A DNA stretch of 64,000 nt from Balanoglossus misakiensis (Eukaryota > Animalia > Hemichordata), in the NCBI GenBank assembly GCA_040954595.2, contig CM082576.2, positions 2,702,760 through 2,766,759 of the forward strand, written 5' to 3'. Shown one piece after another: positions 31,401 to 59,200 of the stretch; within the stretch, counting starts at the first letter, position 1; the number at the start of each line of letters is the position of its first letter. The notes below the pieces were generated by a model that was not told where the DNA came from, searched no databases, and saw only the letters and a program-made list of their open reading frames with translations. The position numbers and the translations under genes were made by a program.

Positions 31401-33724
31401 GGCCATTGTAGCAAAATCATACAATACCCATGCAACCAGCAATATCTGAAAAATATACCCTTACAAAAACGATTTCATTTGCATAAATTAAATTGCATGT
31501 TTTGAGCTGGAACATATGCGGGTGTACTCACAAAAGTCTACTTTGCAACGCACCATAGAAAGTAAATCTTGCTTAATATGTTTAAATCTCCATTACCATG
31601 ACTGGTAACATAGTTTCTTTTATCAGACTGCACTTACTTCCAAAGATGAAAGCTAAAGCTCGGTCTGCGTATTAAATGATGTATGGCGCACTGATGCAGG
31701 TGGTGCGATATTTACATAGTTTTTCTTCTGTTTACGACTCTACTCTGGCAGGCTGAGAACTATCAAGGATCCATTATCACAAACCCTTGAAATTGAGTTT
31801 CCTACTTTGATGCACTGAGATTACTACACTTGCCAGTTCTTGCCAAGTAACAACTCAACCGTTTGAGAGAACAAACTTTTTATTCAGTTGAATCTATTCC
31901 TCAGTGATCATTAGAAATTTGACAGTGGACGTAGTATTGGTCTAAAACTTAGTATTTAATATTCTGTGATGAATAAAAATTCAGGATGAATCACAGCTCC
32001 AGAATTCATGTCATGACTAATGTAACTGTTCAAAATATCATCCATCCATCATAATCATCATCATCACCACCCCCACCATCATCATCTTCACAATTTTTGT
32101 ACAGCCTTCCAGCTCCAAAAGTTCAAAATATCATCCTTCCAGCTGCATGCATTTTCTGGTGAGTCATATAAAAAAAGCTGCAGTAGACTTCATCTGGTAT
32201 TATTCTCGTATCCTCTTTATTTAAAAAATGCATGTACAGGAAATAAAGAGAACGAAAAATGTAGTCTGTACGAACACAGAAAAAGTAGCGGTAAAAAGTT
32301 CCACATGTTCAGATACTGGAACCCCAGAATAAATTGAAAGTAGCCTGACAGGAAAGACAAGCCCCTTCAATTAGAAGGAAATCAGAACCATTTTTCTGTC
32401 ATGGTTTTGTCCTGTTCCCTCATTAAAACAGGCAAGAATTGTGCCCGTTTCAAATTACACTCATGGGTAAACCAAGTTTTACACTACTCAGGTGTCTTGA
32501 TGTGTGTACAATCAATGCACGGAAGACAGCATTACGCTTTAGGGCAACAGCACGTCATAAATTTATCTATACCTTTCAGAGTCCATTAAATTCTTCGTTC
32601 CTGTCACATTTCAATTTTAGCAGATGCACTTTAACAGCTAGCAGAACACATTATGGTTCTTGTTGGGATTTTAACAGTAGTGTGATAATGACTACTGTAA
32701 ATATATCTACTGTTATAGTTATCATTGAATGGCACAAAAAATAGAAATTGTGTGTAATACAAGGAGGACAACACTTACCGATGCAATGTGTGAGCCATCC
32801 ACTGTGCGCTACTTGATCAGGCATGATATAGACGTCACTAAGGTACCAGATTCCTCGCCAAACATTAATCACTCCGAAACTCACCACAGACAGATAAATG
32901 TCTTCAAAGATGATCCGTGAGACTTTCTTGAGCCTCCTGGTAATGTACGCTGTGCAGTGTTGCATGAGATAGCTGGCTAGAGTTATTCCATAGCCGATAC
33001 TCAGAGAAGTCCATCCAGACATTTCCATGTCTGCTGGAAACAGCGTGTTATCCAGAAGGGTCCACGTTCCTCGCCAGAAGGAGACTATTGCCGACCCAAC
33101 CACAATCACTGTGAAAAGCAAATCTAATATGTACAAGTATACGTCGTTTGAGATATCTGTCCTGAACCTTGTCAAGAGAGTAAACCTGTGATTGCTGTCA
33201 AAGTGTAAATAGAACGGTGGTCTTAAGGCATTTCTGCTGCTTCTCAGCAGCCACAGAACCACTAAGGACACAAACGTGCAAACGAGAGCGCTCATCAACC
33301 CATCTCCTGTGTAGTTGTCCCACACATGCCAGACCCCTCGCCAGTAACTGACGCACCCAATAGCCAGGATGTACGTGTGCACCCGGCTCACCACATGCCA
33401 CAGGACGCGGCGCTCCCGGCTGACGAAGCGCTTGAGCGTCGACTGCCACATGTGCATGACCAGCATGATGAGGAAGCCCAGCACGAAGGAGAGCCATCCA
33501 CTGGCCTCGTAGTTGTGCGGGTTCACCATGGTGTCCATGATGTACCAGGCGCCGCGCCAGAAGAAGATCACCGCCGTGGTGGTCAGCGTCAGAAGCGCCA
33601 TCACGTCCAAGAGACACAGGCACGCTCCCTTGCACAAATGCCTCTTCTTCGATCCCTGCGTCCCATTTTCACTCGGATCGTGCAGGGGTTCCAACGCAGT
33701 TTCTGAATCGCGATCATCGGCCAT
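13246..33724 (-). CDS. Fuseless-family multipass membrane protein (424 aa, 3 coding exons)
   Basis: Coding exons are 33724-32779 (946 nt, ends HCI-G|gtaagt), 17412-17294 (119 nt, GCAVIFAMGVGRSLLTIGCAIDGDLGDGRGVLYPHYIRMK|gtaggt) and 13455-13246 (210 nt, ADKTIRSPYEES...KVWYF*). All junctions are GT-AG with polypyrimidine tracts, the phases match, and the total is 1275 nt. Four repeated WRG-x-W motifs (FFWRGAW, SYWRGVW, SFWRGTW, NVWRGIW) lie in hydrophobic helices, typical of the Drosophila fuseless family. Confidence 0.88.
16498..16685 (+). mobile_element. Possible truncated TTAA-flanked non-autonomous DNA transposon fragment
   Basis: It begins TTAA-GGTAGTATGCGCCTC, resembling from recall an abundant TTAA-flanked MITE end in marine invertebrate genomes. 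The opposite TIR was not found in the window. Confidence 0.3.
17294..17412 (-). CDS. Fuseless-family gene, second coding exon
   Basis: Strong acceptor (ttctctcttctctgtggtttcag), phase-1 start matching the upstream exon, open frame, and a gtaggt donor in phase 0. Confidence 0.82.
24914..25131. repeat. Tandem duplication of a ~115-bp unit, each copy containing an imperfect inverted repeat
   Basis: AAGTTTTGTCTTCT-TT-ATATTTTTGTGGGGATGGAAAAGGAAGGAA...GGAAAATTCCC-T-CTTTATCC occurs in units starting at 24914 and 25032. Confidence 0.85.
32037..32088. repeat. Imperfect (CAT)n/(CAC)n simple repeat in the fuseless intron
   Basis: The sequence reads atcatccatccatcataatcatcatcatcaccaccccaccatcatcatc. 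Confidence 0.7.
32779..33724 (-). CDS. Fuseless-family gene, first (main) coding exon
   Basis: ORF 32651..33724 trimmed at the GTAAGT donor (32778-32773). The acceptor ttgtcgtttcag lies just upstream, so the exon starts at 33746. Confidence 0.9.
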
Positions 33725-36700
33725 AGTAGCTGTGCTTTGATGCTCGCTGAAACGACAAATGTTACTTTTACTGGTACTTTTTCCCCTTTTATGTAGCTAC
33801 TAGGAATTCTGTGACAGAAGCATGGTCACCCTGGTTACCATGGTAATCATAACTGTGATAGAGAATCCTAAGCGTGCCATTGTGTGTTTGGTTCCACTCT
33901 ACTTGTCTGTGGGTTGGTCATTCATTTTGATTCCTGAAAATGAGAGAGAGGAGCAGATAAGACATAAGTCATCAGTCTGGAAATCTGACTGTAATTTATA
34001 CATGTACAGATGTGTAAATTTTAAAGAAACTTCAGGCACAAACATGTGACTAAAAGATCCCACCACTAGCAATTCTATGATCTGCACCAAAGAACAATTG
34101 AGCAAATATCATTTACTGAAAACTTACTAATGATGGCAATGATTCAAAACTGCAGGTACCCACTTCCTTTGAATATTCATTTTGTGATAAAAATCCGCTT
34201 CCATTACAGAAAACATTCCTCAGCAGGCTACCTGGTTGTGTGACTGACGGTTTCACCCATCAGTGAACATAATGCATTCACCCGAATCCAGGTACATCTT
34301 TTCATCAGAACCATTTACTATCAGACAATATCCATACAAGTGCAAGCCTCTTTTCATTGCATGCAGTGCTATTCAAATTGCCGGAACCCATTAATGCCTA
34401 CAAGCACAGCCTCTATGTCATTATTATGCCATGCCACGGATTCTCTGCACAGTATCAGTGACAATGACTTGGATATCAGCTATCAAAAAAAGTGGGACAC
34501 AGATTGATTAAATAAATTAGATAAACCTGATAGTTACATTTAGATGTGTTTTCTAATAGCTATTTGGTGAAAAACAATTCCCTTAAGAGTCTATGGTTCC
34601 CACTGTTTTGTATTGTCAATGAAGAAATCTGCCATATAAAACTGATTTCTTTTTTTTATTGAAAATATACATGTACCAGTAGGGGTGTTATTAATCAAAG
34701 TATAGTGATGAGGCGATATGATTATCTATTTAAGCACATGTGACATTAAACACCTTTGTATATTCTTTTTCAACTTTTGTAAGATTCACAATGCCTGAAA
34801 TATAAATATGGCACTGCAGTGGAACCAAAAAATTGCTCACTCCCCATAATTCATTACACTGACACATTTTCCATCTATGTAGTGACTGTGTATGATCATG
34901 CAGGCATACATTAATGATTTTGCCTTTTATTCTGCTATTATCGAACGAAACTCTGAAGATACCTATAATTTAACAAAACACTGATTTCAAAATAGCTGGA
35001 AGTTACAGTAGATGACTAGCAATGGGTGCACCCATAAACTGCCTGATGACCACGAAACACAAAGTGCCTTGGGCTTTGTATGCGTGGAAGTTTGATGTTT
35101 CACTCTCATTAGAAACATAATTTCAGACAATATAAAGGGAACATATTCAGTCCTAGTAATCTCTGACATTTTCCTTTACTACAGTACACCATCATTAGCT
35201 CTTCTGTCCTCAGGTAACAAGAAATCTTGACTAAAAAAGACGGATAAGATTTGCTTTGTATGGTCAATGTGAAGATCGACCGAAAAACTAATTCTGGGGG
35301 AATATCTGCTCTAGATCTCTAGGTCAAAACAAATTTTACGCATTACGCATCCTCTGGGTGATCTGTTTTAAATAACATTTTATTTCTCATCATATGGCAT
35401 TTCTATAAAAAAATGGTAAGAACGAAAACAAGCTTGAAAAGACCTGCGAGTTGTGCTCAAAGTAAATTATGTAGTATTATTTGGGTATATACCGGTATAA
35501 TGTGAAAGGATCGAACACAGATGGTGTACTTTTGGACATTAAAAAATTACTTTTGCTCTAGTTAATTTGTTTACTAGGCTGTAGTTAGTTTGTGTCAGTG
35601 AGATATCAGGCTTTTGGAGGCATAATCGATTCAGGAGCACTATATCAGAAATGTATGTGCTGTAGATGTGTTCACTTGAATTAAAACTTGACAATGCACT
35701 GTGAAACCTGTGTCCAAGGAAGTAATACAAGCACCCACATACTATCGGATGAACTTTATATAAACCCAGATAAACGAAATTAATAATAAAGCACGTTTAC
35801 CAATAATCCAAAATGTAATCAGATAGTATTAAAGTATTCTTTCAGGTTCAATAATTAATTTTTTTTCATTACGTACAGTAAAATGATAGGAATGATATCA
35901 ATGGCATAGTGTGGGTGACAAATACCATAATCCAGGCATCACGCTCTCAATCGGAACAAGAAGCAAAATGGCTGAAGATGTAGTGTTTTTGTGCAGAACA
36001 ATTACATTTAATGTGCTTTACAAGAGCACAACTACATATTAAACACATTAAGTCACCCTTCATAAATATGGATATAAACATAGATACATGCAATGCCTGA
36101 TTAAAAAGTGGAAAAGCATGGAAAAGTAGGACTGACAGAGTAAATGATCCATTCAGATCTGGTTCACTGGTCACTATGAATTCTCACTATGACAGTCCAA
36201 TATAAACATGTGTACGTGTAGCTCACTCTCTCTGAGGAGAAAGTTGGCAGTTTCAAGTTTAAAGTGCTAAAAGCAGAAGTTTGTTAAATATGCAAATTAG
36301 AAGTTAATTAAAATCCACCACACTAAATATTTCCTAAAATATGCAGATGATTATAAGTCTCAATACCTGTACAAAGTTCCATCCAATTTGGTAGTGTAGT
36401 TTTAAAAATATGCCATTAATTAGAAAAGTTCATTAAATATGCAAATTAGCAATTAATTGGTGTGACACCTTATACCACCATAGTCAAGTAGGCCTAAAAT
36501 TTGGTGTGGTAATTCTCTATATATGCAGATGCTGTCATGGTGCACTCCATAGACAAACCACTATCACAAAAATGTTGATCTTTGTTAATTTCATCAATAT
36601 GCAAGACACACCCACCAAATGCTAATCTAATGTTAGGGAGGGTACTATGTGGCCAAGGATGCAACATATAAAACAGAAACTTTCAGGAATAAATTGCTGT

Positions 36701-41812: not shown

Positions 41813-44800
41813 ATGTCCAACCAAAGCACCGTGATACACGTTGGAAGTCAGGAAAACATCGGGGACAGTGAGACTCTCTTGATACCGACCACCAAAGAGA
41901 AAAAGACTGGGGAGAATACGCTGACGGAAGTGGAAGCGACTGAAAGAACACGCGAGATCAGCGATGTCAACAAAAACGACTGCATCGCACCTGAGCAGCT
42001 GACCAAAGAGAAGTTAAATGACTTTGATAAAAATGAAACCCTTCAGAATGGGGGAAAACAGGATGATTGGACAAAACCTTTCAAAAGGAGATCATCCATT
42101 GAAAACTTTGGAAGATTCGGTCTGCTGACCCCGGCACTTATTCTTGTGCCTCAGATTGATGGGGTAGGTGGCTTACAAGTTGATGTCAGGCAGTTCTCGT
42201 ATGTAGGCGTCTTGATTGCATGCCGTCATTGTAGTGGCAAATTAAAAATGGTCAGGGTTTCACTTTCAATAGAATTTCCAATCAAGTAAAATCAATTTGC
42301 TGCTAAATTTAACCTGATAGTACTTAATAGAGTGTGTTAAATAACTGCGTCCAGTGCTTGGCTTTAATTCAACAACTTCAGCATATGCTGTGACGTGAAT
42401 CAGCCTCTTTGAAGAGTGCGTCGGCAAAGTTTAGTGCCCGGTGAAATGAATCCTAGGTACCATTTTTGGGTTCAGAACCACATACCATGCATCTACATTA
42501 TGCTTGTGAGTTGAAGAAACTGTCCAAAAGAGATGTGACAAAATGTAAAAGGTGGCTTAAATAAGCCACTGTGAAGATGCTGTTGTGCATGAATTGTGTA
42601 TACATGTATGTATGTATACACTGATTGGTGACTTTGTGTTCATCATTACCTACATCTATACATGTACGATGTATGTGTATGCATTGTGAGTTATTTCTGT
42701 ACTGTGACATCTGTTAATTCAGGTCAGTTTAATAATACATGTATGTGGGCTGATGACAACTAAAAATAATTTTTCACGATGTTCTCATATTGAATGAGGT
42801 GTAGATTTCGCTTGGCTCTTGTTGGTAGCTTTCTATAAAGAAGGTTAATATATTACATGTACGTGTGTTGCATAACTTCACTGAAGTGTTTTCATTTAAC
42901 GCTGTGTAACTGTTTTATTCCACATTAATTGTGTTACCAGGTGGTTCAGAAACTTAATACTTGGCATACCAATGGCGATTTCCATGGAATGTGTCGTGTT
43001 ATGTTTTGACTGGGTAGTGAATATGAGATTCCAAAATGTGACTGTGAGGTCAAAGTTCAAACCAACAATACGACCAATACCAGCCCCTATTTATAGCAGT
43101 GCAGTATCCCATCCCCCAGCATAATTCCATATGCTGAAAATAAGTCAAGGCCATTCCGCTGAAATTAATGCAATTTGGAATTAACATTGGCTCTAATTCA
43201 ATTGCTGTGTGAACAAAGGGTCTCTGATTATTGATTCCCATGTCCATCTCTCAGAAGCTGTCGTAGTTCAAGTTCAGAGCTTTATTCTTTCCTTGATTTG
43301 GACTTCTTCAAACATGACAAAACCTTAAGTTCTGTACTGCTATTGCAGTTAGATGGAGTTTAAAATTTGAAAGCTTTAGTCGGGAGTGAGTGAAAATTTA
43401 AGTGCCTTAAAAAACAGTTTCGGTGATCGGGTGATGATATCATTCGATGCATTGAGCCCCGAGGCACAGTTTTGTGAAAACAATTGTCAAAATGACAGTT
43501 ATAAAATTTATGAAGTTAACAATTGTGCATTACTGCAAAAATTTAAAGAATCATTTGACTATATTAGTGAATTGTTAACACCCAATCAGTAAATGAAAAA
43601 TAAACTCAGAAGCCACGTTTTGTACCTGCATTGTAATTAGCGTACATTGTGATAGCTTCGACTTAATTGCATGGGTCAACATGAAAATGATACTGTCAAG
43701 CATTTAATAGCGCAACAGAAAAAAGTATTGATCATTTCTCTGTTGATATTGCTGCACATGTTGCTTGATGTCTGTCTACAGTATGTTTGAATTGTTTCAA
43801 AGCCCTTGCATACTGGTATTTGGGAAATAAATGGCATCTTAAGCACTTCTGTGTGTATTTCCAGTTGCCTGTGGTACAAAATTTGAATAGACTGGAGTCA
43901 GGTTACTGTATTGGACGTGCTGTGACTATTTAAAAAAAGTATGACGTGAAGTAGTAAGAGATGACCTACCGTACCTCTGTCGTCAACGCTGGCTTGTTCT
44001 GTTTGGTCAGTGGGTTCGTCAAGTCCACTCTTGATAGTCAGGTTAAATTGATGGCCAAGCTGTCAATCATCATTAAGGTATTGAGCCAATTACAATACAC
44101 TAAATAACAGTTGAGCCGAGTATCGATTGAGATCAGGATGCCATCCCTGTGTGTCGGTCGTTCGCAGTGTTGATGACACTCCAATAGTTTGAAGCCGCAG
44201 AACATAAGTGATGAGTGCTGATGCCAAATGGTGCCCCCTGGTGGTGATGGATGGATTGATGTTCCATACATGGTAGTTTATGTGCGGAATGGTGTCCATT
44301 GCATTGCTCACTTTGTTACAGTGGTAGTCATAATAATTGTGTTAGCCATACGCCAGAGAGCAGGACGGCTGACTGCTATTAAAACTGTCAATATAAATGC
44401 ACTTATAGATCTTATGTATGACATGTGAAACGTTTATAAATACATCTCAGAAATTATTTTTATTGTATCTGTTTGTGAATTGTAATTATTTCTGGTAACT
44501 TTGTGGATTTCCAGTTATTGTTATTCGTAACTGCTGTGAGTTATGGAGGGCTAGACAGCTGTGGAAAATATTTGCAAGAAAGTTTAGACATTTCCCCATT
44601 TTCTTTTTCGCTGGCTGTTCTCATCTCTCACACAACACTGGGTGGTCTTGGGACACATTGATATCATTTGAATTTGTGCCAAGTTTTGAAGAAATGTGAA
44701 AGTTCATATTTTGACAGCTGAAGTATATGATGCCCAACATTTCAAGCTGATGCAGGATTTTGTATCATGGCATTCCAATGATGAGTACTGGCAATCCATA

Positions 44801-47800
44801 TGGATTACATGTGAAAATTACCAGTACCGGTACTAAGAGTTTCTTTGTTTTTCTAACTTCAGAATGATGCTTTGACGCAGAGATTCCCAGACCTTCAAGG
44901 TGAAAACAGGGAGCTGATCCTAGCTGCAGCTCACATCGATGATGCAATCAACGGTAGAGGTCGATACGGAAAAGCCAGGGCGATATTCAAGCCAAGAAAG
45001 GCTCAAACGTAAATTTCTCATTTTGTCTTGTCAGTTTTTAAAACAGGAATGAAAGTTTCTGAAATCAAGGTGTTGCAGATAAACTATGTTATTGAGAAGA
45101 GGAGCAAAATCATATTTTTAAAAAAAATTATTTGGAAATCTGTTAATCTTGGCTCTTACAGAACGGAGACAAACCAACATCGTATTTGTCTTTTATTATA
45201 TCTTTCAGATGTTTTGCAATTCTGGACAGCAGGTGGTTTAATAAGATAGTTTTAATTGCTATCATCATACACACTTGTCTTATATTCTTTGAACCTCCAC
45301 CTGTCAATGGGTAAGTGGGGTGTAATTTGTTGTGAGGAGCGGCTACCGTCTTCTGTCTTCAAAAAGCCATTAAAATAGTTTGCACTTGGATACCAGACGA
45401 GTTGTCAAAGAAGTCACACTTCTCTTGTGACTGAAATGAATTACTGAAAAAAACAAAACAATGTATCACTATCATTGAATCTAACTTAGGCTTCTGAGAG
45501 AAGTAGCGAATCTTATAAAATAGGGGAAAAAAGAAGCTTTCATAAAATGAACTGATATGTGCTTGGTAATGTCATAAACTAACATGACTATTATTTTTTT
45601 GTTTTCATCTTTTTTGTAGGACTTCCCCAGCAGTCTTTGCCCTTACAGCAGTTTGTTTACTTGTTTATTTACTGGATGTTTTGCTTTATATTACATTTTT
45701 AACGTGGCCAGTGTTTTGGTCCATAGCAGAGAACAGATGGATGAGGTGAGTTTGGCAGGATTTTTGTGTGTATAGTTCTGATATCCTATTGTCTGCTAGT
45801 ACAGAGTCAATACGAAATGAACTTTGACATGTTTCACTTTTTTTCCATTCCAGAGTGGAGTTTGTGTTTCTGTGTATGTTTACAGTGGATTTTATTTTTT
45901 TGATAATTCAAGAGAGTATACAAATGGTGAGTCAGAATTTCTTTTCAATGAATGAAATATTATAAGCTCTCTGGAATCTTTTCATGCGATGTTTTACTCT
46001 GCAAACGTAAAATCACTGTCTAGTGCATCTGTATGCATCTTGTTTTTCTCAACACACAATTACCCAAATACCTGGTGGGTACATGTCTGGCTGTACAAAA
46101 CAAACAAAAGAGTTTGTCATGTTACATGTACAGGCTTTAGAAACTTAGGCATGGTAGAGGTTAATGACCTGAGGCACTTGTGGCCAAGTTGCCATGACAG
46201 CCGTCGTGTTTATTTTCTTCAGGTACTTGAGAGTGCGGTAACGCGATTCTAAAAGTACGAACAGTTTTAAAGGTTCTTTTCTCACCGAAGTCTGTCCAGT
46301 CATATTAGGTGACCCCCTGACCCCTTGATAAGAAGGAGACAGGGAAACTCTCTGAGTGTGCTCGTCTGTGTGTTTCAAGATGTTGAGTTTTAGCTGTGAT
46401 GTTAATTTGTGGTGAGAAAGTTAGCAACAAGGTCCTCACATGGCGACGTTGAGTGAAATAAAAACAGGATTTCAGTTTGTCTGCAAACCACCAAACAAAA
46501 GTGAAATTGACACTTGCATTCAGAGGGTATAGAATGTACAGGTACCCTAAAAAGTGAGAGTAGATGTTTTGTCATATTGTTTGTGCCATTGATCTGCACA
46601 GCTATTGACCTACTGGGCAATGAGAATGGTTTGGAAATCTTTACACTAGAGTTTGGAAACTTCCATTAACTGACATTTATGCCCAGCGGCTTAAGTCTGA
46701 ATGTATTGTTGAGAGGTGTTGTGCTCCCTAGTGGGGAATTTGGATGATAAAGGAAGTAAAAGAGAGAAACTACATGTAAATGCAAACCGTGGTTGTTGAG
46801 TCTTTGCCATGCCAACGTCATTGTTTTATTAGTTTTGTCCTACACTGAGTTGATGTGTTTTTATGTAGCCTGTGATTTCAGTACTACATGTATATGTACC
46901 TGTTAATGGGTTGTGAAATGTGTAGACTGGTCATTGCAAGCAAAATATGAACAGTAGTTTGCAGGTTGTTCCAAATGAAAGATGTACTCAGTAGTTTTTG
47001 TTTTTCATCATCTAAAACTTGATTTTTGTATGTCACTTTTCCCATGAATTTGTTACAGTTGGTGATCATTTTACTTTTCAGAGACTAGCGCAACCTTTCA
47101 GATGTCTTCGAGCTGCTTTGCTACTGTGTAAATTAAATAATGTTGGTCACATTTATGACGTTGTTTTATCCATTGCTGTGAAAATGGCAACAGTGAGTAC
47201 AACATCCCTTTCATCATTGTAACATTTTAAAATACAACTTTTAGGTCCAGTTTGAGTACAGGTGACCATCCTCAGTAATCAATCTTGTTGACCCCTGACC
47301 TTATTTGTATAAAAAAGTGTGATTCAAGATATGAAAACCCCAAAATGGACAGTGTCAAATCCATAACTGTTGTTCTTCAACACGACGGATTGTATATTGT
47401 GTACATGTACATGTATGTAACAGTGCAGCTTATCCATGTCTATACTGCATATTATATTATTGTCTGTCTTTTTATCTTTTTGACAGATTTTCTTCATAAT
47501 CACCCTGTTCATTATTCTCTATGCTGCCATTGGTCTACACCTTTTTGTTATGGACTATCATTACATCGGCTGCAACAACACAGGGCTGGTGAACTGCACA
47601 GAAGATGCTGATAATATCTATACTGGGTAAGTTGTTCTCACTCAAACCTTTGCACCTAAAGCTTTCTGTGCCTAAATTTCTTGACAAAAATATTGTCATC
47701 TTGATGTTATTCTTTTGTTTTATACAAATATGTTGTGTTTTGTGGCAAACTTTGTGGCAAAAATGTTGATTCTTATTGTTTTATTGAAATTCTGTTTCAG

Positions 47801-50800
47801 TGCATTTGATCATGTTGGTATTGCTTCATTGAGGCTGTTTGTTCTGCTTACAACTGAAAATTACCCAGTGAGTACCACTACCCATTTTCATGTAGAATTT
47901 TTCAACAGAAGTCTGCCTTACATGCAATTAGATTCGACTGAGAGCGTGGTAAATCTTCACTCACATTTTACAGAAACTGCATGAAAAGACAGGTTCGGAA
48001 TTTGCAAAGCGTGTACTCTTCTCACCATCTTTGTATTTACTGAAACTCAAATATTAAGTAAGTTCTAATTACCGATATAACAGATGCTACTCAGCATTGT
48101 TCAATGGCTTGGATGCAAATATGTTTTAACTATGTTTTTTATAAAACTTAAATTTTCAATTTTTTTTTTTTACCTCATCCAGGCATTCATATTACCAGGC
48201 TATGCAAAGAGTGCATACAGCTTCTTCTATTTTGGAATATTTATTTACGTTGGTGTGTTTATCTTACTGGCAATTATGCTTGCTGTCATAGTTGATGGAT
48301 ATTGGTACGTATTTCCTCAGTTATGAAGTATATTGAAGTAAGGACCAGGATTAACAATTTCATCGTGCACATTTATGGTTGTCAATTGACACACTACATG
48401 TTGGTTTCTCAGAGTATCGTACATATAGTCACTATGACTTCCACCAAAGAAACTTATTACCATAAAAATCATCATCATCATCACCACCATGATCACCTGA
48501 ACTACATGTATCCTATCGCCAGGGTGTTTGCCAAGAAACATGTCAAACTGGAAAGGAGCAGGGAGAGAGCTGAACTGGCCAAAGCATGGAATCTACTGGA
48601 TCCACTAGGAGCTGGCATCCTGGAAAGGAGCGATCCCAAATTCTTGACTTTATTCCGGCTTCTAAGACCAAAGGTATACAAGCTTATGCTGAGTCTATCT
48701 GAATAAATTATAAATTCTCACCTGCCAAATTATGTGTACAAAGCAGGATTTGGCGAAATTCTTCAGTGTGAAATTGTTCAATGTTCAAAAACAATCTCTC
48801 GTTTTACTTCTCTGGCCAATCTCAAGTGACATTCATGGTTCATTTATCCCATATTTTTTTTGTTACAAAATTCAGAACACGGATGACATGAACCAGCAAC
48901 TGATTGATTACCTAGATGGAAATGATGATGGACACATTGACTCCTTTGAGTGGACAACAAGGCTGAATGAAACTCTGAGTTTTGAATTTGAAGAGGATGA
49001 AATGCACCTGCAGGTATGCTGTCTTTATTGGCAATTAACAGTTCCTAATTATACATGGTCACTAGAGGAAAATGTTCCTAAAAATGTGAATGTATTGATT
49101 TTGGACATTTAAATTAAAAATAGAAACACAGTACACCGAGTATCCAGCCTGTCCCAAGTCTCACTGTAACTATATATTAAAACAAAAACCATTTTCTTGT
49201 TTGACAGAGGACTTTTCCCAGATGTTTCCAGGTGATCAGAGATGGAGCTCACCGATTGATCAACTCTAGAGTGTTCTCCATAGCCATTCTCATCTTAATC
49301 ATTGTACATAGGTGGGTTAAAGGGCAGATAGCTGTATATGTAATAGCTTGATATTTGAAACATATGCCTAAAAATGCATCTGAAAGGTTTTAGGATTATT
49401 CCCAACCGCTGGGGTGGTTTAAAGGTGTATTGTAGCCTTCACAGTGAAAGCAATGTACAACCAGGTTGACATTTCGAGTTACTGGCTGTCTTACAGTTCC
49501 TGGTGGTCGATATGTATTTTGTCTTCAAAAAGATGTTTGCTTCATGCAGCATGGAGAAGGGGGAGATCAATTGAACGCATGGTGGTCGTTCACTGACGGC
49601 AGATCCTGAAGTGTCTCTCTTTGTGTTTCAGTGTCTTGTTTTGTGTGAGATGGTGGGGAATGAGTTACATGCAAGAACTTATCATTCAAGCAATCAGAAC
49701 CGTCATTGTGTCCATCTTTGTGGTAAGTTTATCATTATTCATGAAATGGATCATAAACTATCAAATGTGCATGTACATGGTCAGTGTCAAAGTTTTTGTT
49801 AGAGGTATCCTTTTCGAATGTTTTTTGTTAGTTTGAAGGATTTTTAACATCACCTCCATGAAAGTATGAAAATGAAACTTGTGTTATTTGTTTGCTGATT
49901 ATTACAGTTTGAGATTATTCTGAGAATGATGGGAGAGGGGCGTGGCATGTTACAAATCTTGGAGATACTGGACCTTGCGCTGGTCATCATAGCGTTTGTA
50001 GCCAATCTTGTTTGGTATGTGTTCATCGATAACACCATACACAGAGGAGCATGTGTTGTGACATCCTCGCTGGCTGTTGCTCTCCGAATGGGGTTTAATT
50101 CAGCTCAGGTGAGTCTATGTTTTCCATTGTTTTCCATTGTAATCATCCCTCAGGTGTATGAGTCAACATTTGTGATGTTGCATTGGAGATTTGGAGGAGT
50201 AACCAAGTACATGTAATAATATACAGAATCTTGTAAAATAGAAGGAAGTTGTGATTTGCTGTGTTTTCTTTTCCTTCTGTGATAAAAAAAGCACACAATT
50301 AATTCATATTTTGATATTTATTGTATGTTTATTGTAGACAAAGAGGCTGGTCAGTCTACTTATGAAGATTTTCCCTGTCATGTTCGACCTTACTGTGCTG
50401 GTGGTTATTATATTGTAAGTATATTTGAGATTTAAGATTTTGCCTGAGATTTGTTTGTGAATATTGTGATGAAGGAATGTGGAATTTCTAACATGTATCT
50501 TGGATTATCTGTGCCACAAAACTCAAATGCAGGCAGAGACATAGTTGTAGTCCTGTACTACCCATTACCTGTTTTCCCTTGTAGTTATTTCTTCTCCGTG
50601 GTCGGCTGGGAATTGTTCTACGGTTCAGCCCCTGATCCCACCTTTCAGACGGACTACTATCAGTATAACTGTGGACTTGGATTTCAGTCATTTCCGTAAG
50701 TGAGAAATCCGTTATCTTGTGAAGCAAAAGGTGGGGATATACATTGAAAAAAAGTTGCAAGATATGTACACTTTGCAAGATTTTGTAGAAGTGAGGAGAC

Positions 50801-53800
50801 TTACAATTCAACAAAATTTAGAGATTTGTTGATAGAACTGTGGGTTTGGGATGTACCTTGTTCCAAGTTTGTTTCAGTCCATATGTGCATGTCATGCGTC
50901 CATTATTGATAACCAAATCTTTTTTATTGTATATGATATTTTTTTATTCTATAATCAGATGTTCAGTGCTGGTGATATTCCAAGTCATGACGACCAGTAA
51001 CTGGCATGAAATCATGAATGCTGTAAGTTGTGGATTTCCATTAAATGAAAATGTACCGTAAAGAAAAGCTATTTTGTTTTGTAACTTCTGAATCATCGAT
51101 GTAAAAAATGGAATTATTCCAAACAGAAAAATTCCTATCATTAACTTAAAACAAGTTATAACACAGTGCTTTAATTCATTGTGCTTTCTGTTTCAACTTG
51201 CTAGGCCATGCTGTCGACCAGTGAGTGGGCGTGCCTTTATTTCATCACCTGCTTCTTTGTGATGGAGTTGATGGTTATGAAGTAAGTGTTGGAAATTCAG
51301 GGAGATTTGTGGTATTAGTATTAAAACATGAGAAATACTGAGAGTCCAAAACTGTTCCAATGGATAAAATGATTTGTTCATCTCACATGAAAGGTTTCTT
51401 GAAACTTTCTCTAAGATCTTGAAGCAATGTCAAAGCTGACATTTATGTGTTGTTACTATTGTAGTGGTGAGATTTTAATACAATCTGTTTCCTTCCCTCC
51501 AGTATATTTGTTGCCATAGCGATTGAAGCATTCAACAAATTAGGGAGTGAGAAAGAGATGGAACAGATGATCCAGGGAGATGATGTCAGCACAGAGGATA
51601 AGGTGAGAGGCAATCAGTGTCTGCAGACAATGTTGAAGTGTCACGATGCAGTTACTGTAACATCTTTACAGTTTCTACTCCGACTTTAAAAGACCTGGCT
51701 TGACATTTTGTGGAAAGTTGTGCATCATAATTTTACTACGATGACTTTTTTTTCAGGGCACGTTGGCGTCCACTGCCAAGAACTTCATCTCAGATATGTT
51801 TGAAAGCTCAAGGGTAAGTACGTCACGGAAGGTCACACATCGTTTTTTGACTCATCATTTATACCAAAATTCTTCTCCATCTTTGACTAATTCCTTTGTA
51901 TCATGGAAACTTGTAACTTTAATATCATCATGAACGTTTCAGTATGATTTAGTTATTTGTGAAGAGGTGTGTCTTTTACAATTAAAGAGGTTGACATCTA
52001 TTGATTGGTTTATTGAAATTTTGTTGAACAATTTAATGAGTATTTGGCTTTGATTTCCCTTTATCTCCTTCGCTGTAATTTTTGCAGAATGAGCCCGAGA
52101 GAAAACATGTTGCTGCAAGAAGAGGCAGTCACATTGTAAGTACATGTAGTCTTTGGAGGATCCAAAATCATTGAAAATAGCTGGATAATTTCACCATCAT
52201 GTTTAATGGAAAATCTCCCCCAGCTGATGTGGTATTCCCGAAATCTTCCAAATATAAAAACAACATTTTTTTCATCTTTTCAGAGTGCCATTAGCACGCT
52301 GCACATATCAGAGAAAGGAAGCAGTGTAAGCGTTCGTCCTGAGGAGGTTGGTGCAGTTTTGAACTCTACATATTGGAATGATGTTGTAATTGTCTGTATG
52401 GTGTGGTCAGTCAAAGGAAAACAAAGTACTTCTTACATTATTGAAAAAGCCATTTTTTATTTGAGACAAATGACTGATAAATTGATACCACATTCTTTAT
52501 TATTGAAATAATGAACAAATTAAGACAATTTCAACATTTCTTTCATAAGGGAAAGGACGACTTCTCTGACCTGCCAGCACAACTGAGACGAGAAAAAATG
52601 CTGAAACAGAAGATGGCACAGAGGAAGAAGAAACATGCCAAGTCAGCCATGACCAAGATTATTGTGATGACAGCATTCAAAGCGGACAGAGAAAATGAGA
52701 TTGACCTGAATGTTGGTGAAGAGGTCAATGTCATGGAAAAGGTTGGCAGACTCTTGTGAATTTTGACCCAAGATATTTCAAATCCAGTTGCATTGATTTG
52801 TGTTCGTTTGTCAAATCATGATCTCTGCAATCTTGCCTTAACATTGTCACCATAACTATTTGCTTGTTCCCCCCAGAGAAACGATTGGTTGTTGGGATCT
52901 GTGGGCGAGAAAACTGGATGGCTTCCAGCATCGCATGTCCGAGAGATGAAGAGGACTCACTCAGTGGAAGAGTCCGGCCATTCCGGCAGTGCCAGTCCTA
53001 AACCAGCATGGAACAGAAAAAGTATTGAAAAGTCAGATCAGAAGACGCAAGAGTCAAAGGTATGAGATGTAGGAATGTTTGTGCTCCTGTTGACATCATT
53101 TTTGGGGATCATTATCTGCCTGTTCCATTCACTCTTAAATAAACCTCATGACCTCTCATCACCTCTGGCCCATTTCACCAGGGTGACAAGAAGGGAGGCG
53201 ATCACACATCCTTTCACAATGCCGCCTTGGCCGCAGCTGCGACAACCCATCTACAGGTTCAGCAGGCGTCGTCACAGCAACCAAAACTGAAAATCAAGAA
53301 GAGGGAAACGGATTGGAGGAAGAGTATTCTTGGTGACATCACTGTCATGAATCCAGAAGAGGTAAAAGTCATGGCTGTTTTTCTGGGTTCTCTGTTTGTT
53401 TGATCACATTTGTTTGTCCCTTACCCCTGGTGACCCTTGACATCACATGGAGAATTGTCCCATAACATAATGCAATTACTGTTGTAGGTCCGAGAACTGA
53501 ATAAGATCATGAAATCTGAATTGAAATACCGCGGTAGGATGGTAGCTGGAGAGGTGAGTGCATAGTCTTCATAATCCACAAGGATTTGAATTTGGCATTT
53601 GATTATTTGCCTTTGCCTTGAATTTTCAAAAGTGACTTGATGTTTGCAAAATCTCATTTTATGTTAAATCACTAGTGTGGAACTAATTATTGTTTTATGA
53701 TTATTCTTCTCCATTTTTCAGTCTTCTGGATCCTTGCCAGGAACAATGAAGTTTGCATCAACTCTGTGAGTATATAAAGTTCGGAAAATTTTTCACCAAA

Positions 53801-55045
53801 AGTGACAATTCTGTGTCATGTGTACATTCTGGCCACACCAATCAGTGCCCGTTGCTCATTCTGAAAGTCTGGCAGGGGTACTGTGGAGGTCTCATCCTTT
53901 GACAGATAAAATTTATTTTTGGAGACAAACTTTTTAACCTGCATTCTCCTATTTTCACCAGAGATGGCAGTATACAGGAAGAAGACGGAGAAGCTGAAGC
54001 AGCTAGGTTGAACTTGACAGCACCTGGTCAAGTACGTTTCAAAGCTTTGGTGTTGTTAGTTTATGTCCTAAAGACCATTCACTGATCAATTGTGTATTGG
54101 TCACAAATTAAACACAGATTACTGTATCTTGACAGTGGGGTCACTATTTTCAGTTGTGATTTCTTGGGGGCCAACTCAGACTACATAAAGACAATAGAAC
54201 ACTCATAAAATCTCTGATTTTGCTTTGTGTAGATCAGAAGTGAAAAAGTGCCTTCCATCTCACTCGACAAAGTTGATGAAGGACAAGGAGAAAGTGGCAA
54301 AGGTAAGATCAACCCTTGTGCAGATGACTTTCTTTCCGAATGATATTGCGGGTTCCTGCTTGGTCACTCCACAAGTGGATGTGACCGTGGTTCCTGACAG
54401 AAAGTCATCTGCGACCGCTCACCGTTTGTGACCATTTCCATCATGTCTGAGGTGCACCTCGACCATGAGAATTACACGGTGAACTTTGATTGGCCAAGTG
54501 TGCTGTACACTAGGTACATGAGAGCATTTCATAAGACTGATGATCATTACTCTCTCCGAAGTAATACTGCAGTTGTACTTTTCATTTTCAGAAAACTCGG
54601 GGAGGAAAGAAAGTGGGGAGATGCCATCGTGGATGATGAAATTTGCCGAGACTCACAACATCAGCGTGACGGAAGATGTCAAAATGGAAAAACCGAGTGA
54701 AGAAAATGAGGAGTATGTTGTCTTTACTTTTTGTCATTGTGTGGGAATCAAAATACTAGTGGATTAATGTGAAGATTCTTTTTGATGTGAAAGAAGTATT
54801 TTTTGAATTCATGAATATTTCAGAGCATGTGTATGTCGGTGAAAGAATTGTGCTGTCAGATCTGTTTAGTTTGAGGCAATGATAGCGCCATCACTGGTCA
54901 AACTCCAAATTTCTGCTGTTTTCCCTGGCGGTTTAATTTTTCAAACATGGGACATCAGTTCCTAGATTTAATCATTTTTTGACTTCTATTACCTCACAGA
55001 CAATCGCTACCAGGAAAAACCAATATCCAGACAACAGAGCTGTGA
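41813..55045 (+). CDS. Atypical two-pore channel (TPC)-like cation channel with linker EF-hands and a C-terminal SH3 domain (~1156 aa, 31 coding exons)
   Basis: Exons, all GT-AG and phase-consistent, summing to 3471 nt: 41813-42163, 44863-45008, 45209-45310, 45620-45745, 45854-45926, 47082-47192, 47487-47626, 47801-47867, 48183-48304, 48523-48673, 48876-49013, 49208-49311, 49632-49722, 49908-50108, 50338-50414, 50585-50695, 50959-51022, 51205-51281, 51503-51602, 51757-51813, 52088-52135, 52284-52325 (or 52346), 52550-52741, 52877-53059, 53182-53361, 53488-53553, 53722-53765, 53962-54031, 54233-54302, 54592-54712, 55000-55045. TPC hallmarks: N-terminal LAAAHIDDAINGR, IS1 LIFFEPP, IS4 PFRCLR, pore I LFVLLTTENYP-AFILPGY, IS6 LAIMLAVIVDGY, IIS5 FSVVGWELF, pore II FQVMTTSNWHEIM, IIS6 MNIFVAIAIEAF. 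An in-frame TGA at 41756 supports the ATG at 41813. Junctions in the tail are less certain than those in the channel core. Confidence 0.88.
48523..49013 (+). other. EF-hand pair in the interdomain linker of the TPC-like channel
   Basis: Degenerate loop AWNLL-DPLGAGILERSD and canonical loop YL-DGNDDGHIDSFE-W (48915-48950; D1, N3, D5, G6, I8, D9, E12). Confidence 0.85.
52655..52948 (+). other. SH3 domain split over two exons of the TPC-like channel
   Basis: The spliced translation KIIVMTAFKADRENEIDLNVGEEVNVMEK|RNDWLLGSVGEKTGWLPASHVREM aligns with the SH3 pattern (ALYDY-A---DELSF--GD-I-V----WW-G----G-FP-NYV). Confidence 0.85.
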
Positions 55046-56222: not shown

Positions 56223-59200
56223 TCACCTTCTCTTGGTTCTTCGTCCTGAACGCGTTGTCGGTGTGCGACTCCTGCTGTGGTTGCTGGTGTCCGAGACATC
56301 AGTACAACTCTCGCACGCCCATTTCCCTGCAAGAGGTGAAAAAGGTCAATAATGTTGAATCAGGGTACAACAGAGATCGAGGTCACAATGTACAGGTTTG
56401 ACAAATACTGAACAAGTACCGGTAGTTGGTGACATAAAACTTGAGGTCACTGTACACATGCACATACATGATCATGCAGTGTAGAAAAATGACCTTTCCG
56501 GGGTGAGGAATGTATCCAAGTTGTGACCTGCACTGTGATCAGCAAACGATAGTTGTCCTGTGTTTCTATGCCACTTACTTGTCTGAAGTATAAAAATACG
56601 CGTGAAGGAAAAGAAAAGAAAAGTATGGGTACCTGTTGGAATGCTCTTAAGTCCCACACAGAAAGTATGGTATCCTCTGTCACACTCGTCACAAAACATC
56701 ATCTTGTCCTGCGAGTTATAAAAAGAAGGGTCAGAGTTCAAAAGGCAAAGGTGAAATATCAAATGCAAAAAGCTGAAGGTGTTTTTGAGAAACACTGGAA
56801 CTAGGTATGTCTGCACTGAAGTAAATAAGCTGTTTCGCACAAAAGGTGCATTGGAGGTTTGATGACTGTGTGACAAGGCTTGCTGTTTTTTATTTGGAAA
56901 GTTCATCACTTTGAAATTTGCCAGCAGTCTCTACATGGGACTCACCTCGTGTGTAGGATCACCGCAGAGTGTACAGGTCTTGCATTCCATGCACTGCCAC
57001 GGATACGTCTTGATCACCTTCACCAGGTCGTCACTCATTTCCAGACATGTTGGATGACCTGAAATCCAGTTTGTGAGTTTTAAAGTCAGATGATTTTAAG
57101 TCGAAATGTGGAGGCATTGTGGTCTAACGGCAAGGGTATCAAATTTGCTATTGCAGGATTGTAGGTTCGACACCTAGACATGGTTGTGGATTCATTATCA
57201 GAGAATGGGGAGTTTTTGAGACCTGGACATATGGCCATGATGGGCATATCATATGAGGTTTTGCTCTTGAACAGCCTTCAAATGGTTTTAAAATGCATGA
57301 AGAGAATTTCAGTGGTTGTGTATGCAAGTACGTGAAGAATCCATGCCGCGTTGTAGACACTACAAAGGATTTGATCAACAACTCACCGCTGTTGTCGCAC
57401 TGCGAGCAGTGAACCAAGATTTCCTGGAAACCCTTCTTGTTCGACTGCTCGCCCTTCAGGCAGATCCCACATATTGCATCCGGAATATCCTTAGCCTGCT
57501 CATGAAGAAAAAAGATGGACATTTAGTGAAGGAGTCCCCAAAAATACCTGTAAGAGGGATGGCTGTTGTGATGTCTACACAGTACTGTAACACACAACTC
57601 AGATTACATCAGGCACCCAGAACTTTCCTAGTGAATGGAACACTTTTCAGCTCTGTTGCATAATACCACTGGTCGTGTTTTCTCGTACACTGTGCTGGGC
57701 GAATGACTTCACATGCACACATCACTGCACTGATGGTAAACAACATGTAATGTGTGATTCATGTTTCATGCGATGTGCACAATGCTACCAGTAAAGTTTT
57801 TTTCCTTTTGTTTAATGATACATTACCTATACACCACAGGTAATACTCAGCACCATACAACATGTTTCATGAAAAACAAGACTCGATGGCAAGGTTTGCG
57901 ACAGAGACGGGGCATGCTGATGAAGGGAACAACAGCAGTGAGGCTGATGTCAGAGGTGAAAGGTCAAAGGTGACCACACGCGCACAGCCACAGGAACAAC
58001 ATTTGCAGACATGACACGACAGCTTACACACAACATAGGGACTTTAAGTACACAACACAAAGCACAAGTCAGCAGCGCTGGCGGAAGGTTAAACAGGGAA
58101 TTTTTTTTTTCTTTGAAAGAAAAATGAAGAAGGTAACAAAGTCCAAGGTGTAAAAGGGAAAGATTTGGACACCTCTTTGTTGACTGTGTCCTCCTCCTTC
58201 GCCTTCTCATCCTCAGTATCCTGCTCACCCTGCTCAGCAGGCTGTGACTGCGTTGCGTGTTACAACGGCAACAATTCAAAGAAAAAAAAGACAGAAGAAA
58301 GAGAAGAGAATCAATAAATATTTATACATTAATATTTAAAAGCTGGGGGGGGGGGGTAAAATCACTCTAGGCTTGAAAATCTCTCAAGCAGGTGAACAGA
58401 TTGTTGTTGCCCGCTTCCAAATTGTTGGACAAAATGCAAATTTTGGAAATTTTCTCATGTGTTTGGGGTTGCCCTGTCAAAGAGGTTGCCTGCCATTTTG
58501 TTGGCTGCCAGCCAAGTCTTTGGTTTTATTCAAGAGAGCTGGGGGAGCTTTCCACTGCTGGCTCTCACCTCATTGGCTAACAGTTCTGACTTCGACTGGA
58601 AAGAAATCTAAGATCAGAGAATTTGTCAAGCCATGTGATACTGGAAGAAAATGAAACAGTTTCCTGCAGTATGAGTCTTTTAGAGCTGTAATGTCAGAAT
58701 GTTTTTTTAGGACAATAAGATTTGAGTCCAGTTGGTATAGTTTTCAGTTGTGTCATCAGAGCGACTTTAAAAAAAGGAAACCAAGTCCTTTTCCCCCAAC
58801 ATGGAAGATCAGCTAAATCTAACAACTCTGACTAAACAGCTTTAAAGTTTCAGATTTGTTAACTCACAATAGGTGAGGTATTAAGTCTCAGAAACCTGAT
58901 GTCAGTATAAAGTTCAATAATACTATTGACTGTTAATTTGAGATAATTTTAGTTATTTCTATTGTATGAGCAGACTTAAGTATAATTGAATACAGTTTAA
59001 GAAAGTATAAACAAGTAGAAAGAAACACCATTCTTCTGGGGTTTGGTGTACATCTGTTTCACCTTATATCCCTTCTTGCTCTGTTTGTTTGCTTTATCTG
59101 ACTCGTTTTCGGCATCAGATTCTTTGGAGCCACTCTCACTGCCACTGCTGCTGTCAGATCCAGATCCATCACTTGATTCACTGTCCTGATGATGAATGTA

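Follow-up and report, generated by a model that had tools for sequence, protein, structure and literature searches.

The question raised by a 64,000-nucleotide stretch of the genome of the hemichordate Balanoglossus misakiensis (assembly GCA_040954595.2, contig CM082576.2, positions 2,702,760 to 2,766,759, forward strand; hereafter, the window) is what type of cation channel is encoded by a gene whose two tandem channel repeats carry dissimilar selectivity filters, TTENYP in repeat I and TTSNW in repeat II, and which ions such a pore would conduct. An earlier note on this DNA had treated the gene as a two-pore channel (TPC) with an unusual filter. The analysis described here indicates that the gene probably encodes an SH3-tailed channel with two repeats of six transmembrane segments each (2x6TM) that resembles the TPC-related (TPCR) channels and that, as a predicted dimer, would not be Na+-selective in the manner of TPC1-3 and would likely be permeable to Ca2+.

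Both filters are encoded on the forward strand. The codons of filter I, ACA ACT GAA AAT TAC CCA, are preceded by a Leu codon (47847-47849) and run into a GTGAGT splice donor at 47868; those of filter II, ACG ACC AGT AAC TGG, lie between codons for Met (50987-50989) and His (51005-51007). The motifs had initially been reported as LTTENYP and MTTSNWH; the coordinates given with them fit TTENYP and TTSNW to the codon, with the flanking Leu, Met and His falling just outside. To relate these residues to those of known channels, we used HMMER alignments to solved structures of P0001, an uncharacterized 937-amino-acid protein of Ptychodera flava with Ion_trans and SH3 domains, the one longer protein that was matched by the seed exon 49908-50108 (79% identity over the exon). 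TTENY of filter I pairs with TLEGW of Cav3.1 domain I (DI), Glu on Glu, and with TTSNN(P) of AtTPC1, Glu on Ser265, whereas TTSNW of filter II pairs with TQEDW and SKDGW of Cav3.1 domains II and III, with TGDNW of Cav3.3 domain IV, and with VMGNW of AtTPC1; here, Ser falls on the Glu or Asp of the Cav domains and on the plant Gly, the latter being the position of Asn653 in HsTPC2. The same columns hold TxExW-type motifs (DI/DIII) in 46 four-repeat channels and TANYP / VVNNW in TPC-type proteins. The filter-I Glu is in the column of the selectivity glutamate of Cav and Nav channels, in agreement with the earlier assignment to the acidic ring of Cav channels, and the filter-II Ser is in the HsTPC2 Asn653 / AtTPC1 glycine column. 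As had also been noted, filter II lacks the Asn-Asn pair: it has Ser-Asn, compared to Asn-Asn in the TPC-type sequences and Gly-Asn in AtTPC1. The reference motifs that had been given for animal and plant TPCs proved accurate against the AtTPC1 alignment and the literature (PMC6424560, PMC11085791): HsTPC2 has Thr271-Ala272 in filter I and Val652-Asn653-Asn654 in filter II (PMC6424560), and the plant filter II, MGN, has been converted to VNN (PMC11085791). With T-E-N and T-S-N, the window gene has neither the T-A/S-N filter I of TPCs nor their filter II, V-N-N in animals and M-G-N in plants.

A homologue search seeded with residues 1-540 of P0001 (word-based, 7992 candidates scored) returned 54 proteins, the first 46 of which contain two repeats, mostly together with an SH3 domain, and the last eight are T-type-Cav-like, with 19-29% identity. 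The SH3-tailed family is represented among these 54 matches by about 30 named animal species from eight phyla, the family including hemichordates, echinoderms, amphioxus, tunicates, an annelid, a brachiopod, a nemertean, cnidarians and sponges. Vertebrates, arthropods, nematodes and molluscs contributed no orthologue to the matches, which, for a word-based search of so few candidates, is no proof of absence. When the window gene and P0001-P0046 are counted, with isoforms of the same species included, Glu and the following Asn are present in all 43 sequences that cover filter I. Filter II, covered by 46 sequences, is TTSNW in 35, and its central residue is Ser in 37, Asn in seven (TTNDW in three tunicates; the other four are from sponges or are sponge-like), Glu in one (TTEDW, in the choanoflagellate Barroeca) and Phe in one (an Apostichopus isoform with a divergent end); the next residue is Asn in 41 of the 46. 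In a 46-row alignment of the family (A3, numbered by the amphioxus orthologue P0008), N407 and P409 do not vary, and conservation of E406, T761 and W765 is 90% or higher. With Glu-Asn of filter I in all 43 covering sequences and TTSNW in 35 of 46, the pore motifs are no chance matches; both are conserved from sponges to chordates, and the earlier reading, which a lack of glutamate conservation among orthologues would have refuted, passes this check. The window gene carries the family signature, [ST][ST]EN[YF]P in filter I and a TTSNWHEIMN-like sequence in filter II.

Several members of the family and its relatives depart from this pattern. The tunicate orthologues P0024, P0027 and P0028 (Ciona, Styela and Clavelina) have TTNDW in place of TTSNW, that is, a central Asn followed by Asp, a second acidic residue close to the filter that is specific to this lineage. 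In P0045, from the choanoflagellate Barroeca monosierra, TSENYP and TTEDW put a Glu into each filter, which makes its pore the most Cav-like of the clade; xxEDW in filter II is also found in the relatives P0115, P0137 and P0149. Lingula and Owenia possess second, divergent two-repeat paralogues (P0056 and P0074, respectively) that lack the filter-I Glu (TTSNYP) and have TTAGW and IGSIW in filter II; the database lists the Lingula paralogue as 'sodium channel protein type 4 subunit alpha'. The automatic names within the family itself are in conflict, ranging from 'two pore calcium channel protein 1-like' and TPCN1 to sodium channel protein type 11/7 alpha and P/Q-, R- or T-type calcium channel alpha; evidently, annotation pipelines lack a model specific to the SH3-tailed family.

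Outside the pore, the two repeats differ in their voltage-sensing segments. The S4 segment of repeat I contains FRCLR and one Lys, with R308 and R311 of P0008 nearly invariant in A3, whereas that of repeat II has one Arg (R677 of P0008, invariant in A3), compared to three or four in the TPC-type sequences P0192, P0227 and P0228 and four or five in four-repeat channels. A repeat-II S4 with several regularly spaced Arg is the working voltage sensor of TPC1 and TPC3; the window gene lacks such a series and, with one Arg left in this segment, its channel probably senses voltage only weakly. The linker between the two repeats contains two loops that align with EF-hands 1 and 2 of AtTPC1, the first of them degenerate, DPLGAGILERSD, and the second canonical, DGNDDGHIDSFE. 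Pfam detects Ion_trans in two stretches of both P0001 and P0008 and, above the cut-off, SH3_1 and SH3_2 in P0001 (residues 639-689) and P0008; precomputed SH3 domains are present on most of the family matches, and one protein of Salpingoeca infusionum has SH3_2 just above the cut-off, at 22.2 bits. The window gene follows the same order of two Ion_trans repeats and a C-terminal SH3: its two SH3 exons align to the SH3 region of P0001, although neither exon taken alone gave a Pfam match, the domain being split by an intron. The C-terminus, ...QTTEL (about 55031-55045, forward strand), is common to the window gene, Ptychodera and Glandiceps (P0001 and P0043) and resembles a PDZ-binding end. In an AlphaFold2 model of P0008 built with A3, the channel core and the SH3 domain are confident, with the predicted local distance difference test (pLDDT) score of the core mostly between 85 and 97; the mean, 69.5, is lowered by disordered ends. 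For this model, Foldseek ranks AtTPC1 (TMt 0.78), HsTPC2 (0.75-0.77), MmTPC1 and TPC3 above Nav and Cav chains, so that, among solved structures, those of TPCs come nearest to the predicted fold, with the two tandem 6TM repeats characteristic of TPCs.

By homology to TPCs, the channel is expected to be a dimer, which would present Glu, Ser, Glu and Ser at the central level of the filter and four Asn one residue further on. Such a pore would lack the Asn653-type constriction and, with it, the TPC route to Na+ selectivity, and its two carboxylates would bind divalent ions, favoring mixed cation or Ca2+ conduction. Voltage dependence would be weak; cytosolic Ca2+ is a likely regulator through the canonical second EF-hand, as in plant TPC1; and the SH3 domain and the ...TTEL end could tether partner proteins. 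As judged from sequence, a Ca2+-permeable or non-selective cation channel is the most likely outcome, and the main rival is a monovalent-selective channel with divalent block.

A number of points weigh against a Ca2+-permeable, TPCR-like channel. The predicted pore would hold two carboxylates only, and bacterial Nav channels with four Glu select Na+, so that a Glu ring by itself is no proof of Ca2+ selectivity. The strict EF-hand pattern is found in only 23 of 42 family sequences, and Pfam EF-hand_5 scores 16.6 bits, below its cut-off of 25.9. The AlphaFold2 model is a monomer of the amphioxus orthologue, with the dimer expected by homology. In the tree described below, the TPC type is represented by P0192 from Palpitomonas and four unnamed TAN/VNN proteins rather than by named animal TPC1-3 or plant TPC1, and TPCR channels were compared by their published description. 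The count of two carboxylates and the precedent of the bacterial Nav channels also speak for the rival, under which the family and the pore are the same but the channel selects monovalent ions (Na+ or K+/Na+), the filter-I Glu being a high-field-strength Na+ site, or a site of divalent or proton block, rather than a Ca2+ conduction site. It is further consistent with this alternative that the Asn that follows Glu or Ser is kept as in TPCs in both filters, at the frequencies given above. However, Asn653, the constriction that sets the Na+ selectivity of TPC1/2, is Ser here (PMC6424560), and plant channels with Gly at this position are non-selective (PMC6424560, PMC11085791). On balance, we consider monovalent selectivity unlikely, albeit a rival to be taken seriously, and favor conduction of Ca2+ or of mixed cations.

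To place the gene, we constructed a careful IQ-TREE phylogeny from a MAFFT alignment of 54 rows and 606 columns that comprised the two-repeat units of 44 two-repeat proteins and both halves of five four-repeat channels; several rows have long branches, and a quick tree of 82 rows agrees with it. The window gene groups with its Ptychodera homologue (support 100/100), and the pair then joins the echinoderms (100/98). All 15 animal rows fall into one clade (100/100) whose sister is a group of choanoflagellate proteins (group A; 97/96); together with a second choanoflagellate group, which includes Sycon, and a haptophyte-like group, these comprise a 30-row clade that is split with 100/100 support from the other 24 rows. 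The latter consist of a clade of TAN/VNN-type two-pore sequences (100/100), additional protist two-repeat lineages, and the halves of the four-repeat channels (100/100), among which the first halves are monophyletic and so are the second halves. The gene is thereby placed, on phylogenetic grounds, outside TPC1-3, as a member of a separate, Holozoa-wide clade, and the view of it as a TPC with an odd filter has to be abandoned.

Two observations could be taken to suggest that the gene is nevertheless a canonical TPC1, TPC2 or TPC3 orthologue with a lineage-specific change of filter, namely the TPC-like names of some family members and the proximity of the predicted fold to TPC structures. Such orthology is contradicted by the fully supported split from the TAN/VNN-type sequences; by the presence of the acidic filter, the single-Arg repeat-II S4 and the SH3 tail throughout the family, from sponges onward; and by low phmmer scores against solved TPCs (82 bits for AtTPC1, 62 for MmTPC1 and 45 for HsTPC2). 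Canonical TPC orthology was accordingly rejected on the filter, S4 and tree evidence and appears very improbable. A search for named TPC1-3 seeded with TAN/VNN-type proteins returned six proteins, none of them named as TPC.

The family was recovered first in a profile search of 1.84 billion representatives, followed by about 25 more single-stretch two-repeat proteins and then by four-repeat channels. Cluster look-ups identified the nearest non-animal members in nine named choanoflagellate species, Barroeca, Salpingoeca infusionum (two proteins), Hartaetosiga, Mylnosiga, Microstomoeca, Codosiga, Choanoeca, S. urceolata and Didymoeca; look-ups near the family also name Sycon and a cluster that contains Prymnesium. 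This distribution invites comparison with the TPCR clade, reportedly described by Rahman et al. in 2014 (Sci Signal 7:ra109). In the available accounts, TPCR is a clade of two-repeat channels of unicellular organisms with Cav-like filters (PMC4278181, PMC8490419, PMC6259924). The window gene agrees with this definition (PMC4278181, PMC6259924): it has two repeats, falls outside TPC1-3 and carries an acidic, Cav-like residue in a filter. A 2026 review states that animals lack TPCR genes ('not found in animals') and calls it unclear whether true voltage sensors are present in the TPCR repeats (PMC12839299). In the literature covered, which does not extend to subscription journals, we found no account of a TPCR in an animal, of a two-pore channel with an SH3 domain or of a 'TPC4', and the accessible parts of three broad papers on channel evolution (PMC12749960, PMC7312350, PMC12412391) make no mention of an animal TPCR-like family. 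The published TPCR sequences (Salpingoeca rosetta, Monosiga, Capsaspora, Thecamonas) were not among the named matches; other choanoflagellate species cluster with the SH3-tailed family. The putative assignment of the gene to an animal branch of a TPCR-like, SH3-tailed family fits these observations.

The phylogeny also bears on how unusual the filters are. An acidic filter-I residue is present in 46 of the 54 tree rows, with representatives to either side of the main split, and requires only three changes on the tree; filter II requires 16 changes, and TTSNW, too, occurs on both sides. Within this sample, which was drawn from the top of a search seeded with the SH3-tailed family and is therefore biased to look-alikes, an acidic filter I prevails to either side of the split, and lacking it is a mark of the TPC-type clade. 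Since most of the sampled tandem and four-domain channels share this state, the characterized TPCs are the outliers. The description of the filters as unusual therefore holds in comparison with characterized TPCs but not within the gene's own clade and most of its sampled relatives, where they are the norm.

The suggested relevance of the gene to the origin of Cav and Nav channels is only indirect because the SH3-tailed family is not recovered as the sister of the four-domain channels in the 54-row tree. From the distribution of the acidic filter I and of TTSNW, a broader scenario may be tentatively proposed, although we regard it as rather doubtful: the Glu-Asn/Ser-Asn pore could be ancestral to the eukaryotic tandem two-repeat channels, with Cav/Nav-type channels having added acidic residues in repeats II and IV and TPC1-3 having lost the Glu; marine invertebrates would have kept a Ca2+-regulated, weakly voltage-dependent, SH3-scaffolded, Ca2+-permeable channel that was lost in vertebrates, insects and nematodes.

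In the papers and solved structures consulted, every TPC characterized by electrophysiology or structure has a filter without acidic residues, and TPCR, said to be confined to protists, stand alone among two-repeat channels in being noted for acidic filters of the Cav type. Many animals, however, keep a conserved two-repeat channel with a Cav-type Glu in one filter and without the Na+-selecting Asn of TPC1/2. This channel is a natural, expressible test case for the number of carboxylates that a pseudo-tetrameric pore needs to select Ca2+ and also addresses the type of pore in the two-repeat ancestors of Cav and Nav channels; for the sea urchin, amphioxus, tunicate and cnidarian models, it is a new candidate for Ca2+ entry or release.

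The locus is intron-rich and of eukaryotic type (G+C about 38%), and tblastn with P0001 and the Glandiceps protein P0023 delineates collinear exons from 41813 to about 55045 (Table 1). The channel part was modeled at 41813-51602 as 19 exons with GT-AG at all 18 introns and an open frame of 784 amino acids, as checked by script, in which TTENYP is at residue 367 and TTSNW at residue 715; the exon boundaries in this part were set by eye from flanking sequence, and exon ends past 51602 are approximate. The model is 86-87% identical to the Ptychodera flava protein, starts with a Met followed by a conserved N-terminal region, and has a tail that is conserved as far as the stop codon at 55043-55045. 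In a six-frame scan of the 64 kb with the family profile, positions 74-779 of the profile were covered once, in order, exclusively by forward-strand exons, and no further channel repeat was detected, nothing else scoring below E = 0.8. Because the profile is covered once and the window holds no other repeats, this is one complete two-repeat unit with its own start codon and tail, as opposed to four tandem repeats in one polypeptide or a piece of such a gene. The gene is intact, with two Ion_trans repeats, a putative pair of EF-hands in the linker and a C-terminal SH3 domain. A pseudogene, a wrongly joined model or part of a four-domain Cav/Nav gene would be the least probable of the alternatives, given the open frame, the canonical introns, the identity to the Ptychodera protein, the conservation of both ends and, for the partial four-domain gene, which is rejected, the single repeat pair in the window.

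Table 1. Features of the two-repeat channel gene in the window (window positions)
Feature	Position	Strand	Evidence
Whole gene: two-repeat channel, linker with putative EF-hands, SH3 domain, long tail ending ...TTEL and stop	41813..55045	+	tblastn with P0001 and P0023
Exon with repeat-I S4 (FRCLR, two Arg and one Lys)	47082..47192	+	gene model, S4 comparison
Exon with pore helix I and filter I	47801..47867	+	sequence, tblastn, gene model
Filter I codons, TTENYP (Glu at 47856-47858)	47850..47867	+	translation; Glu and Asn in 43/43 sequences
Exon with repeat-I S6	48183..48304	+	tblastn, gene model
Exon with post-S6 helix and degenerate first EF-hand loop, DPLGAGILERSD	48523..48673	+	aligns with AtTPC1 EF-hand 1
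Second EF-hand loop, DGNDDGHIDSFE, canonical 12-residue pattern, inside exon 48876-49013	48915..48950	+	aligns with AtTPC1 EF-hand 2
Exon with repeat-II S2-S4 (single Arg in S4)	49908..50108	+	S4 comparison
Exon with pore helix II and filter II	50959..51022	+	sequence, tblastn, gene model
Filter II codons, TTSNW (Ser at 50996-50998)	50990..51004	+	translation; TTSNW in 35/46 sequences
Two exons (51205-51281, 51503-51602) with repeat-II S6 and start of tail	51205..51602	+	tblastn, gene model
Two SH3 exons (~52550-52741, ~52877-53059)	52550..53059	+	tblastn to P0001 residues 602-730

Three additional elements were observed in and around the gene. A run of CAT/CAC triplets (48470-48495, forward strand) that would be read as a His tract in one frame lies in the intron between exons 9 and 10 and is non-coding in the model. 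The reverse strand contains, about 8 kb upstream of the channel gene, an uninterrupted frame of 381 amino acids (32651-33796) that matches Pfam Fuseless (E 2.5e-78, 264 bits), indicating an apparently intronless gene for a Fuseless-family membrane protein. Downstream, also on the reverse strand, exon-sized frames at 56472-57522 include a PHD finger (Pfam PHD, E 1.1e-6) and another stretch rich in Cys and His and, judging by these domains, probably belong to a double-PHD-finger gene.

Compared with known systems, the channel shares with TPCR the two repeats, the position apart from TPC1-3, the acidic Cav-like filter residue and choanoflagellates as the nearest non-animal relatives. It differs in that TPCR has been described, in the accounts available, for unicellular species only and without mention of an SH3 tail, whereas the SH3-tailed clade has a large animal branch; furthermore, the animal SH3-tailed members have Glu in filter I only, with Ser or Asn in filter II, in contrast to Barroeca P0045. 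Plant TPC1 (7fhn, 5dqq, 5e1j) is the best structural match and, among solved structures, the best two-repeat match in sequence (E 2e-22); the EF-hand pair of AtTPC1 follows repeat-I S6, in the place of the putative pair here, and both filters have an Asn after the central residue, as in the window channel. However, AtTPC1 has Ser rather than Glu in filter I and Gly rather than Ser in filter II, the identity is about 18%, and its solved chains, of 723-741 residues without tags, have no counterpart of the long SH3-bearing tail.

With the animal TPC1-3 (HsTPC2 6nq0, MmTPC1 6c96, zebrafish TPC3 6v1q), the window channel has in common the two-repeat fold (TMt 0.66-0.77) and the dimeric pore expected by homology; the differences are the Thr-Ala / Val-Asn-Asn filters with Asn653 (PMC6424560), as opposed to Thr-Glu / Thr-Ser-Asn, and the separate clade of TAN/VNN-type sequences. 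Among solved structures, Cav3.1 (6kzo/6kzp for Cav3) gives the best phmmer E-value, 2e-32, summed over four stretches, and the filter-I Glu falls on the DI and DIII glutamates; the resemblance is to DI/DIII for repeat I and to DII/DIV for repeat II. Unlike the four-domain Cav channels, the window channel has two repeats and a filter II without an acidic residue, and the halves of the four-domain channels form a fully supported clade of their own on the other side of the main split.

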